Origin: Sediminibacterium sp. | Lineage (GTDB): Bacteria > Bacteroidota > Bacteroidia > Chitinophagales > Chitinophagaceae | DNA: 60,693 nucleotides | Reading direction: 5' to 3' | NCBI GenBank assembly: GCA_030158535.1 | Contig: JAOASV010000130.1 | Location: 1 to 60,693 of the forward strand | Part shown: positions 54,856 to 58,070 of the stretch, piece by piece | Layout: every line of letters starts with the position of its first letter | Numbering within the stretch: position 1 is the first letter of the stretch | The notes under the pieces: generated by a model | What the model was told of the DNA's origin: nothing | Seen by the model: the letters and a program-made list of their open reading frames with translations, nothing else | The model's database searches: none | Made by a program: the position numbers and the translations under genes

Positions 54856-55317
54856 TTATTTCTTTTTAGGAGTACCTAAAATTTCTTGACCATGATTTTT
54901 TGAATCTGGCTTTGTGATAATTTTTTCGATCACGCCGTTTTCATCTATGATAAAAGTAGTGCGTAAAGTGCCCATATAGGTTTTACCCATAAACTTCTTT
55001 TCGGCCCAAACGCCATATTTTTCATGAATAACTAGGTCAGTGTCGGCAATAAGCGGGAAGGGTAAGTCGTGCTTGGCAATGAATTTTAGGTGACTTTTTT
55101 GGTCGTCGGAGCTCACACCTAACACTTGGTAGCCCTTTTTGGCCAATAATTTATAATTATCCCTCAAATTACAGGCCTGCACGGTACAAGTTGGAGTCAT
55201 ATCGTGGGGGTAGAAATATAAAACCAGTTTTTGACCCTTAAAACTAGATAGGGCAATGGTTTTACCGTTTTGGTCGAGGCCTTTAAAGGCTGGGGCTTTG
55301 GATCCTTCTTGTAGCAT
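54856..55317 (-). CDS. bcp: Thioredoxin-dependent thiol peroxidase (BCP/PrxQ)
   Basis: YFYPHDMTPTCTVQAC, LRTTFIIDE. Confidence 0.93.
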   Translation of the reverse strand: MLQEGSKAPAFKGLDQNGKTIALSSFKGQKLVLYFYPHDMTPTCTVQACNLRDNYKLLAKKGYQVLGVSSDDQKSHLKFIAKHDLPFPLIADTDLVIHEKYGVWAEKKFMGKTYMGTLRTTFIIDENGVIEKIITKPDSKNHGQEILGTPKKK

Positions 55318-55418
55318 TTGGAGGGTTTTAGGGTATTAAAAATAAGGAGGTAACGATTATATAATAAAATTGAGGCCAATTAGTTCAAAAAAAATACCCC
55401 CTTCTGCTCCCCCTTTAT

Positions 55419-55426
55419 TAAATTTG
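55419..55426 (+). promoter_or_regulatory. -7 promoter element for carB
   Basis: TAAATTTG 22 nt upstream of the ATG. Confidence 0.62.
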
Positions 55427-55448
55427 CACAATTTATTTTTTAGTTCCT

Positions 55449-57095
55449 ATGCCAAAAGACAATTCCATAAAATCGGTACTTATCGTTGGTTCTGGGCCCA
55501 TTATTATTGGCCAGGCCTGCGAATTTGATTATTCTGGTTCTCAAGCTGCCAGAAGTTTGCGTGAAGAAGGCATTAAAGTGATTTTGATTAATTCAAATCC
55601 AGCCACCATCATGACAGACCCAATGATGGCCGATAAAGTATACTTGTTGCCGCTTACCATCGAAAGCATTGAGCAAATTTTACAAGAAAACGATATCGAC
55701 GCCGTACTTCCAACCATGGGTGGTCAAACCGCTTTAAACCTTTGTAAGGAAGCCGATGAAATTGGCATATGGAATAAGTACAACGTGCGCATGATTGGTG
55801 TAGACGTTGCTGCTATTGATACCGCCGAAGACCGTGAGAAGTTTAGACAGCTTATGGTAAAAATTGGTATGGCTGTAGCGCCAAGCCGTGTAGCCAATAG
55901 CTTTTTAGAAGGAAAAGAATTTGCACAAGAAATTGGATTCCCAATGGTTATCAGACCTTCCTTTACATTAGGCGGAACGGGTGGTGGATTTGTACATAGC
56001 AAAGATGATTTAGATGCCGCACTCGAAAGAGGATTAAAAGCATCTCCTATTCATGAAGTACTTGTAGAAAAAGCAGTACTTGGATGGAAAGAATATGAAC
56101 TTGAATTGTTACGTGATCAAAACGATAATGTTGTTATCATTTGTACCGTAGAAAATTTAGACCCAATGGGTGTGCACACTGGAGACTCTATCACCGTGGC
56201 ACCTGCCATGACTTTAAGTGATACTGCATTCCAAGAAATGCGCAACAAAGCCATTTTAATGATGCGCTCACTGGGTAATTTTTCAGGTGGATGTAACGTT
56301 CAATTTGCACTTAACCCTGCTACCGAAGAATTGATTGCGGTTGAAATCAATCCGCGTGTAAGTAGATCGTCGGCACTCGCTTCTAAAGCAACGGGTTATC
56401 CAATTGCAAAAATTGCTGCGAAGCTTGCCATTGGTTATAGTTTAGATGAATTAAAAAATCAGATTACAAAAACAACCTCTGCATATTTTGAACCAGCACT
56501 TGATTACGTGATTGTAAAAGTGCCGCGCTGGAATTTTGATAAATTTAAAGGTGCCAATGACACTCTTGGTTTACAAATGAAAAGTGTAGGTGAGGTAATG
56601 GCGATTGGAAGAAACTTTAAAGAAGCCATACAAAAAGCTTGTCAGAGTTTAGAAAATGAAGCCGTTGGTTTAGGCTATTACGGTAAGAGCCTCATGAAAA
56701 GCGAGGACCTCGTAGAATATATAAAAACACCAAAATGGGACCGCATATTTAGAATCAAAGATGCGCTCATGGCGGGTTCTACTGTTAAGTCTATTGCACA
56801 AGCAACAGGCATTGACAGATGGTTCTTACACCAGATTTTACAAATTTGTAATATCGAAAAAGAAATTGCAACGCATACACTAGAAACCCTTCCTGAAAGC
56901 TTATTAAAAGAAGCTAAAAAATGTGGTTTTGGTGACGTGCAAATTTCAAAAATTTTACATGGCGATTGCACAGATGAACAAGTGTATGAAAAAAGAAAAG
57001 CACTTGGCATTACCAGAGTTTACAAAATGGTAGACACTTGCAGCGCCGAGTTTGAAGCAAAGACACCTTATTTTTATAGCACTTTTGAAGGATAA
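55449..57095 (+). CDS. carB: Carbamoyl-phosphate synthase large subunit, N-terminal half only (carboxyphosphate + oligomerisation domains)
   Basis: GSGPIIIGQACEFDYSG, MGGQTALN, RPSFTLGGTGG, HTGDS, EINPRVSRSSALASKATG, YKMVDTCSAEF; stops at YSTFEG (548 aa). Confidence 0.93.
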   Translation: MPKDNSIKSVLIVGSGPIIIGQACEFDYSGSQAARSLREEGIKVILINSNPATIMTDPMMADKVYLLPLTIESIEQILQENDIDAVLPTMGGQTALNLCKEADEIGIWNKYNVRMIGVDVAAIDTAEDREKFRQLMVKIGMAVAPSRVANSFLEGKEFAQEIGFPMVIRPSFTLGGTGGGFVHSKDDLDAALERGLKASPIHEVLVEKAVLGWKEYELELLRDQNDNVVIICTVENLDPMGVHTGDSITVAPAMTLSDTAFQEMRNKAILMMRSLGNFSGGCNVQFALNPATEELIAVEINPRVSRSSALASKATGYPIAKIAAKLAIGYSLDELKNQITKTTSAYFEPALDYVIVKVPRWNFDKFKGANDTLGLQMKSVGEVMAIGRNFKEAIQKACQSLENEAVGLGYYGKSLMKSEDLVEYIKTPKWDRIFRIKDALMAGSTVKSIAQATGIDRWFLHQILQICNIEKEIATHTLETLPESLLKEAKKCGFGDVQISKILHGDCTDEQVYEKRKALGITRVYKMVDTCSAEFEAKTPYFYSTFEG

Positions 57096-57107: not shown

Positions 57108-58070
57108 ATGAAATTACAAGACATACAAGTACAAAACGAAAAAGAAACACGTGGTGGATTTGGTGAAGGCATTCACGAAATAGGAAAAGAAAATGAAAAT
57201 GTAGTAGTACTTACTGCAGATCTAGCAGGTTCTTTAAAACTAGGACCCTTTATCAAAGATTTTCCAAACCGCTTTGTACAAGTAGGTATTGCAGAAGCCA
57301 ACATGATTGGTATTGCTGCTGGTATGACCATTGGTGGTAAAATTCCATACACGACAACGTTTGCAAATTTTAGCACGGGTAGAGTATATGATCAAATCAG
57401 ACAAAGTGTTGCGTATAGCGGAAAGAATGTAAAAATTTGTGCATCACACGCGGGTCTTACATTAGGTGAAGATGGTGCAACACACCAAATTTTAGAAGAC
57501 ATTGGACTAATGAAAATGCTTCCGGGCATGACCGTTATTGTTCCTTGCGATTTTAATCAAACCAAGGCTGCTACTAAAGCAATTGCTTCTTATGAAGGGC
57601 CTGTATATTTAAGATTTGGTCGTCCAAAATGGCCAAACTTTACAGCTGTAGATGGTAGTGATTTTGTAATTGGTAAAGCACAACAATTATCGGAAGGTAC
57701 TGACGTAAGTATTTTTGCTTGCGGTCATATGGTTTGGAAAGCGATTGAAGCTGGACGCATACTAGAGGAAAAAGGATTGAGTGTAGAAGTGATTAATATT
57801 CATACCATCAAGCCTCTTGATGAAGCGGCGATTATCCGTTCTATTTCAAAAACAAAATGTGCTGTAACGGTAGAAGAACATAATGTTATTGGTGGACTTG
57901 GTGATAGCGTTGCACAAGTTGCTGCAAAACACTTCCCAATTCCTATCGAATACATAGGCACCAACGATACTTTTGGAGAAAGTGGTACACCAACACAACT
58001 ACTTACAAAGTACGGATTAGACACACCATTTATTGTAGCGGCTGCAGAAAAAGTAATTTCTAGAAAATAG
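57108..58070 (+). CDS. Transketolase C-terminal subunit (pyrimidine-binding + C-terminal domains)
   Basis: ADLAGS, GIAEANM, RVYDQIR, GEDGATHQ, GPVYLRFGR, TIKPLD, VEEH. Confidence 0.92.
   Translation: MKLQDIQVQNEKETRGGFGEGIHEIGKENENVVVLTADLAGSLKLGPFIKDFPNRFVQVGIAEANMIGIAAGMTIGGKIPYTTTFANFSTGRVYDQIRQSVAYSGKNVKICASHAGLTLGEDGATHQILEDIGLMKMLPGMTVIVPCDFNQTKAATKAIASYEGPVYLRFGRPKWPNFTAVDGSDFVIGKAQQLSEGTDVSIFACGHMVWKAIEAGRILEEKGLSVEVINIHTIKPLDEAAIIRSISKTKCAVTVEEHNVIGGLGDSVAQVAAKHFPIPIEYIGTNDTFGESGTPTQLLTKYGLDTPFIVAAAEKVISRK

Follow-up and report, generated by a model that had tools for sequence, protein, structure and literature searches.

The locus described here raises the question of what a half-length carB gene, encoding one part of carbamoyl-phosphate synthetase (CPS), represents. 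The gene occupies 55449..57095 on the forward strand of the window, a 60,693-nucleotide stretch of DNA from Sediminibacterium sp. that was analysed as a whole. A preliminary description of this DNA offered two options: a CarB in two pieces, the second encoded at a distance, or a natural homodimeric half-enzyme resembling the ancestor before gene duplication. The former is borne out, as the other half is encoded on another contig (C66) of the same genome. We consider it very likely that this is a naturally split CarB, in which the N-half, the C-half and CarA would make up a three-chain enzyme and the promoter of both halves is predicted to be linked to UTP. The split itself is already known from Aquifex; what is new is the promoter element shared by the two halves.

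The product of the gene, identified by open reading frame, profile and alignment, has 548 residues and corresponds to CPS.A, that is, a carboxyphosphate ATP-grasp unit plus the oligomerisation domain. It ends in PYFYSTFEG followed by a stop codon, and the next gene begins 12 nt on, as the preliminary description had it and as the open reading frame and profile checks confirm. Pfam places a pre-ATP-grasp domain (PF25596) at residues 7-124 (55467..55820, forward strand), an ATP-grasp domain (PF02786) at 128-334 (55830..56450, forward) and the oligomerisation domain (PF02787) at 424-502 (56718..56954, forward). End to end, the protein aligns with E. coli CarB 1-548, and it spans positions 1-543 of the 1052 in profile TIGR01369. 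Of the features that define the CPS II large subunit CarB, the carboxyphosphate ATP-grasp unit with its catalytic residues and the oligomerisation domain are present, but the protein is not a full CarB in a single chain; the ATP-grasp residues are presumably R129, R169, E215, H243, Q285, E299, N301, R303 and R306 (E. coli numbering). The TIGR01369 scores of the two halves are 822.8 (N-half) and 498 (C-half), against a cut-off of 1027; the PRK05294 cut-off of 599 is exceeded by the N-half alone and not by the C-half. The second, carbamate-phosphorylating ATP-grasp unit is absent from this chain and is separately encoded on C66; the earlier statement that there is no second module holds for the locus.

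The gene that follows (57108..58070, forward strand) is by profile the C-terminal half of a transketolase, a neighbour that is no part of the enzyme and that occurs downstream of the N-half at just 5 of the N-half loci clustered. It is the C-terminal piece of a transketolase that is itself split. On the other side, synteny clustering identifies a divergent AhpC/TSA (Bcp-like) peroxiredoxin (54856..55317, reverse strand), which is found upstream of 19 N-halves and one fused carB. The preliminary description had allowed for a misassembly at about 57095; there is none, because contigs from both DNA and RNA runs bridge the stop codon and the next gene. The junction 57095/57108 is spanned, with >31 nt per side, by contigs from three of four DNA runs (X3, X5 and X6, of which X3 is possibly the source sample of the window) and three of four RNA runs (X15, X16 and X17), and no assembly joint is listed between the N-half and the transketolase gene. 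The RNA-run contigs cover the N-half gene, but as assembled contigs they are uninformative on transcript start, strand and level. The stop falls at the identical position in 42 N-halves, which are 546-553 residues long.

The genome to which the window belongs (G000) is an assembly of 338 contigs and 2.2 Mb, 98.6% complete and with signs of contamination. A profile search of this genome finds the C-half, 398 residues long, at G000:C66:807-2003 (forward strand), covering TIGR01369 positions 547-933; the two halves are 34% identical. carA lies at G000:C202:1394-2500 (reverse strand), scores over its profile cut-off and contains GICLGHQ and QYHPE. It follows rplQ, with which the RNA polymerase alpha operon closes, across a gap without a -7 box (L004, C202:1394-3165). 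Aspartate carbamoyltransferase (pyrB) and an N-acetylornithine-type transcarbamylase, both users of carbamoyl phosphate, are also encoded, so that the search suggested in the preliminary description, for a C-half together with carA, pyrB and argF, returned the C-half, carA, pyrB and this transcarbamylase. No full-length carB was found in the genome search. For carbamate kinase, another source of carbamoyl phosphate, there is only a weak 20-bit match in the arginine cluster of G000. With the N-half, the C-half and carA as three separate genes, the arrangement is, at the gene level, that by which Aquifex-type split CPS is defined. Two recF-pyrR-pyrB loci, on G000:C233 and G000:C29, are only 70% identical in DNA; from its lower G+C, the one on C29 is probably contamination of the bin.

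The allosteric domain, already reported missing in the preliminary description, is indeed absent, but its loss is older than the split. In E. coli CarB, with domains at 1-400, 401-552, 553-933 and 933-1073, residues 934-1073 bind UMP, IMP and ornithine (PMC6245113). The genome search of G000 finds no counterpart of this region and no stand-alone allosteric domain, its two MGS hits being PurH and methylglyoxal synthase (MgsA), and no MGS-like domain was found in either half by domain scan or genome search. Among full-length CarBs, 126 of 130 are 913-956 residues long (about 940); the sources of fused short CarBs include Chitinophagales, Pedobacter, Flavobacterium and Algoriphagus, the profile matches of fused CarBs end near position 933-950, and the one fused short CarB that was scanned contains no MGS domain. 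As judged from these sequences, loss of the MGS domain predates the split and is common to fused Bacteroidota CarBs. Since the fused relatives already lack the domain, the C-half ends at the same point as its fused parent. This direct parent, the fused short CarB of about 940 residues in Chitinophagales, Flavobacteriales, Sphingobacteriales and Cytophagales (82-85% identical to the family members), has the same C-terminal tail and differs in its intact linker and single promoter.

Half-size N-halves recur in relatives with C-halves alongside, as a survey of CarB lengths, proposed in the preliminary description, makes clear: the C-halves are 393-398 residues long. Within the genus, none of 36 genomes has a full-length CarB match, and pieces of both halves are found in 33. 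Only the N-half is found in G009 and G030 (77% and 62% complete) and only the C-half (L336) in G004 (98% complete); G152 has two N-half genes for one C-half (L240, L241, L244), and in G017, a single contig, the halves are 267 kb apart. In a draw of 201 genomes from the family, at least 88 have no full-length match among the matches listed, each of these 88 showing two or three matches; the C-half is present in all 30 split family genomes checked. These halves are broken within the variable linker that separates YSTF(E/D) from NES, E. coli residues ~548-553; the published boundary between E. coli CarB domains is at 552/553 (PMC6245113).

Other arrangements were observed elsewhere. A different CarB split occurs in other classes of the phylum, in 41 of the 131 genomes of a phylum-wide draw, with a break near position 477, inside the oligomerisation domain (five genomes checked; G451, G459, G388, G474, L245-L253), and a back part of ~600 residues that runs to the end of the model and includes the allosteric region; in G436 there is a gap between positions 480 and 550. 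In one family of the order (f11; G046 and others), the CarB oligomerisation domain is found in just 2 of 13 near-complete genomes, one single-contig genome included, and the genomes without it may lack CPS.

Sequence conservation speaks to whether the halves are still in use. We checked 53 positions, which we take to be active-site, tunnel or interface residues, in 42 N-halves and 36 C-halves. The N-halves are invariant except at E. coli positions 208, 210 and 242, and the C-halves except at 754; the invariant positions include E25, E383, E577, E604, E916, R306 and R848, and those that vary in the halves also vary in fused CarBs. Across nine genome pairs, N- and C-halves alike have a dN of 0.03-0.09 versus a dS of 0.9-3.2 or saturation, with a dN/dS of ~0.02-0.06. 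By this measure, both halves are working genes under strong purifying selection, and the relaxed selection considered in the preliminary description does not apply.

Comparison with known enzymes places the split system more precisely. E. coli CarAB (CPS II; reference structures PDB 1BXR/1JDB) has the same active-site residues and is 52% and 48% identical over the two halves, but CarB is one chain there and two here, and carA is unlinked here. The Aquifex break presumably likewise follows the oligomerisation domain and precedes the second ATP-grasp unit, and CPS.B presumably retains the allosteric domain, which fits the mass reported for the complex. The Aquifex glutaminase, CPS.A and CPS.B each have a gene of their own, and the complex has a mass of 171 kDa (PMC6022934). 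Both systems thus use three separate genes for the glutaminase and the two synthetase halves; in contrast with Aquifex, the C-half here has no allosteric domain, both halves have a common promoter element, and the host belongs to a mesophilic lineage of Chitinophagaceae in which the split arose repeatedly. The nearest named record is from an uncultured Sediminibacterium (92% identity). An origin separate from the Aquifex split is implied by the nesting of the halves among fused Bacteroidota CarBs.

The history of the split can be followed in the gene trees. In all of them, the N-half nests inside fused Bacteroidota CarB; the split is therefore derived and not a relic from before the duplication, and the suggested likeness to a pre-duplication ancestor falls away. 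Split genes form five groups: the main clade, G191/G090, G080, G056 and G281/G270. In approximately unbiased (AU) tests, a single origin of 26 split genomes is rejected (p 2.5e-76), as are all eight unions tested among the five groups (46 rows, p 1.3e-3 or lower); a single origin of the main clade is not rejected (p 0.18-0.28), though the best tree differs. The AU tests among groups covered 42 and 46 rows and used fast searches and the gene tree, and the groups were named after the tree had been inspected. The trees indicate that the linker broke at least five times at one place, a count that depends on the absence of re-fusion and transfer.

Three genomes have small genes of a mobile type in the space between adjacent halves: in G281 a GxxExxY gene with flanking repeats, in G270 a UPF0175 and DUF3368 pair (toxin-antitoxin-like) and in G080 a PIN-domain gene with a small partner (also toxin-antitoxin-like). 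The repeats bounding the GxxExxY gene (L243:960-1520) are short and of the CACAAAG type, accompanied by a hairpin, and the insert in G270 (L239) begins with repeats that resemble them. The distance between the halves is 57 nt in G137 and 5 kb in G170; elsewhere it ranges from 36 kb to 1.3 Mb. Upstream neighbours are common to N-halves and fused genes, and downstream neighbours to C-halves and fused genes, a pattern consistent with a break in place. G058 and G237 were rejected as adjacent splits, as their reading frames are broken near the linker, and they are excluded from all fission counts. In G191 (L226) and G090 (L228), a gene that by its sequence resembles the DNA polymerase III beta clamp immediately precedes the C-half; the C-half, having no -7 box of its own, is probably co-transcribed with that gene. 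On the proposed course of events, the linker after YSTF(E/D) would have been broken in place at least five times, with small mobile-type genes inserted in some cases; in the main clade, the halves would then have moved apart, the N-half retaining the ancestral upstream neighbours and promoter, and the C-half retaining the downstream neighbours and acquiring the carB promoter as a copy, either through duplication or through convergence.

The promoter is where the two halves meet again. A 17-nt promoter/start-site element at 55418..55434 (forward strand) is identical to G000:C66:783-799, upstream of the C-half, and has no further copy in the genome; the pattern TAnnTTTGCRCAATT likewise has two sites in the 2.2 Mb of G000, one ahead of each half. 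The Bacteroidota sigma-A -7 box TAnnTTTG, which is the gene's own -7 element recognised in the preliminary description, lies at 55419..55426 (forward), as assigned from the sequence and the F. psychrophilum spacing. Start-site maps of F. psychrophilum put this box at -12 to -5 (PMC9723704). With that spacing, the start falls on the A of ATTT; the predicted start A with its three T (5'-AUUU; 55431..55434, forward strand), 18 nt before the ATG, is a candidate site of UTP slippage. Here and in the counts that follow, +1 is taken from the Flavobacterium spacing and is a predicted position.

Over 37 split genomes, there are 77 exact matches to the pattern (0-5 per genome) versus 18 for the reversed control pattern; 25 are placed ahead of an N-half, 23 ahead of a C-half and two ahead of carA, and 17 of the 37 genomes have the pattern at both halves. 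Among the other matches, 20 of 27-29 were examined: one is at carA, 18 led to an open reading frame other than carA or to none, and 17 of 18 apart from carA stand ahead of an unrelated gene or of none. Purine-TTT at the predicted +1 occurs at 38 of 40 main-clade N loci versus 15 of 528 box-bearing G000 genes, figures in which kin are non-independent and the background is one genome. Fused family loci have it in 20 of 38 cases, and carA loci in 6 of 29. At main-clade C loci, purine-TTT is found in 14 of 31 cases, the others reading ATCT or ATTC, and CRCAAT in 24 of 31. G137, G170 and L049 were omitted from the main promoter set after they had been seen to lack the motif; with them included, the T-run is found at 38 of 43 N loci and 14 of 33 C loci. 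Wherever the C-half promoters of the other four fission groups were seen, they did not contain the motif. CRCAAT is present at 13 of 38 loci of fused family carB versus 2 of 528 G000 genes, these two being the halves. Because fused family carBs carry the element too, it is either the promoter of the ancestral carB or a sequence that came to match that promoter by convergence. N, C and fused promoters also have in common an A-tract near -44 to -41. Silent sites are saturated, and thus the promoter element is under selection.

E. coli offers a precedent for how such a start might work. At carAB P1, transcription starting with GUUU is down-regulated by UTP-dependent slippage, and starts with A slip more (PMC6245113); slippage needs a minimum of three like bases (PMC8812562). 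UTP-dependent reiterative transcription is described for carAB P1 (5'-GUUU), pyrBI, codBA and upp (PMC6245113, PMC8812562). With the predicted start, the elements would be alike in having a purine and then three T at a CPS gene; they differ in sigma factor and phylum, in that the start here is predicted only, and in that the element here serves two dispersed half-genes and is not conserved at upp. UTP slippage at the N-half promoter is a prediction to which we give an even chance. As only 14 of 31 C promoters have the three T, slippage would not be general for the C-half. The upp gene of G000 has the same start, but among the box-bearing upp loci of relatives just 1 of 12 does, and upp was therefore dropped as independent support for UTP sensing; pyrB promoters are uninformative because pyrB follows a pyrR-like gene and the strand assigned to some loci may be wrong. 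There is no RNA structure at the predicted 5' end (z = +1.14) and no Rfam match in five loci, and a sigma-70 scan, with a model unsuited to this phylum, stayed at chance level.

Upstream of fused carB in two groups, there is instead a conserved GC-rich hairpin and then a T-run at the predicted start, not ATTT (L145, L152, L153, L155, L156, L163, L165, L167, L168, L171 and L174 in one group; L143, L146, L159, L160 and L176 in the other, with no Rfam match in three such loci). In enteric bacteria, pyrC is controlled by CTP-dependent start-site choice, and the hairpin with its T-run could be attenuation by such a choice.

Several readings compete with a reassembled three-chain enzyme. The fragmented assembly with its signs of contamination (two pyrB loci) and the frameshift-type breaks near the same linker in G058 and G237 might suggest an artefact, either misassembly or a decaying pseudogene; both are ruled out by the bridged junction (6 of 8 runs) and purifying selection, single-contig genomes show the same architecture, and the chance of an artefact is negligible. 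More interest attaches to the reading of the N-half as a stand-alone homodimeric CPS that survives from before the duplication. Both partial reactions are reported for isolated Aquifex CPS.A as well as for isolated CPS.B, and a 41-kDa CPS from Methanobrevibacter smithii, which like the N-half has one ATP-grasp synthetase unit per chain, is active as a homodimer (Popa et al. 2012, via PMC6022934). The 34% identity between the halves and the N-half without partner in two incomplete genomes point the same way. The homodimer reading fails, however, because the same genome encodes a separate C-half. That C-half is conserved, present in all 30 split family genomes checked, under equal purifying selection and preceded by the same promoter motif; unlike the M. 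smithii enzyme, the N-half has 548 residues with an oligomerisation domain, a C-half partner and descent from fused CarB. We regard this reading as very improbable. Somewhat less remote, though still improbable, is that the halves are separate enzymes or loose partners, with carbamate released and recaptured, or with homodimers beside some heterodimer. The partial activity of isolated halves (PMC6022934), the unequal gene counts in G152 and a gene distance of >1 Mb in G240 would suit this, but carbamate is unstable and is channelled in E. coli CPS (PMC6245113), and the Aquifex halves form one complex (PMC6022934). The residues that presumably line the carbamate tunnel between the halves are invariant on both sides. 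That the split halves reassemble into one enzyme is, in our view, very likely.

Two further alternatives leave the enzyme as it is. The shared element may be a regulator's operator or a promoter tuned to match output, without UTP sensing, which is a serious possibility a little short of even. The core TTGCGCAA is palindromic in many copies, CRCAAT without the T3 run is seen at half of the C promoters, the A-tract is also common, the start at upp is not conserved, and PyrR, encoded beside pyrB as judged from the sequence, could provide pyrimidine control otherwise. On the other hand, N promoters show variation at palindrome positions -3 and -2 but hardly any at +1 to +4; and outside the family, fused carB still has purine-TTT at differing distances (23 of 56 loci that bear the box versus 43 of 528 in the background), which is more readily explained by a start-site feature than by an operator. 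ArgR was rejected as reader of the motif, as it was not found in G000 (98.6% complete). The count of fissions may also be too high: with one or two early splits in the family, re-fusion or horizontal transfer could have produced the pattern. The history is drawn from gene trees, the C-half tree contains a supported clade of 30 fused genes in the midst of split ones, and holding the fused main-clade genes together is not rejected (AU p 0.63). However, junction sequences differ between groups, G281/G270 are nearly identical to a fused congener (<0.02 changes per site from G291, of the same genus), fused genes have N-type upstream and C-type downstream neighbours, the pattern of an ancestral locus, and G056 lies outside the family clade with 100% support. 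Fewer fissions are accordingly an unlikely explanation.

On the preferred reading of a split, reassembled CarB, and by analogy with the E. coli and Aquifex enzymes, CarA would feed ammonia to the N-half, which would bind CarA and make carboxyphosphate and carbamate; the C-half, bound to the N-half, would phosphorylate the carbamate. The pair would restore the channel of the fused chain, and the assembled enzyme would be the equivalent of the fused CarB of other Bacteroidota that lacks the allosteric domain. Transcription would begin with 5'-AUUU, with slippage when UTP is high, in the manner of E. coli carAB P1, giving pyrimidine control of an enzyme without the domain that binds UMP in E. coli. 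The fullest version of this picture is tentative: a three-gene CPS without allosteric domain, its feedback moved to a UTP-slippage start, an orphaned C-half that acquired a copy of the promoter, a linker that is a recurrent landing site of mobile genes, and all stages of fission still readable.

In the literature searched, mostly without subscription journals, there was no mention of a split or MGS-less CarB in Chitinophagaceae, of this promoter or of a short Bacteroidota CarB. For annotation, the findings mean that carB half-genes should not be labelled pseudogenes or truncated. A single linker broken at least five times, with intermediates to be seen, would be a rare natural series for the splitting of an essential gene. 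The shared promoter is a testable answer to the question of how scattered halves match their output, and UTP-slippage control may exist in a phylum for which the searched literature contains no report of it. A natural two-piece synthetase without allosteric domain in a mesophilic lineage would be a tool for finding out what each half needs, and a model for how CPS stays active and controlled without the domain that responds to UMP and ornithine.
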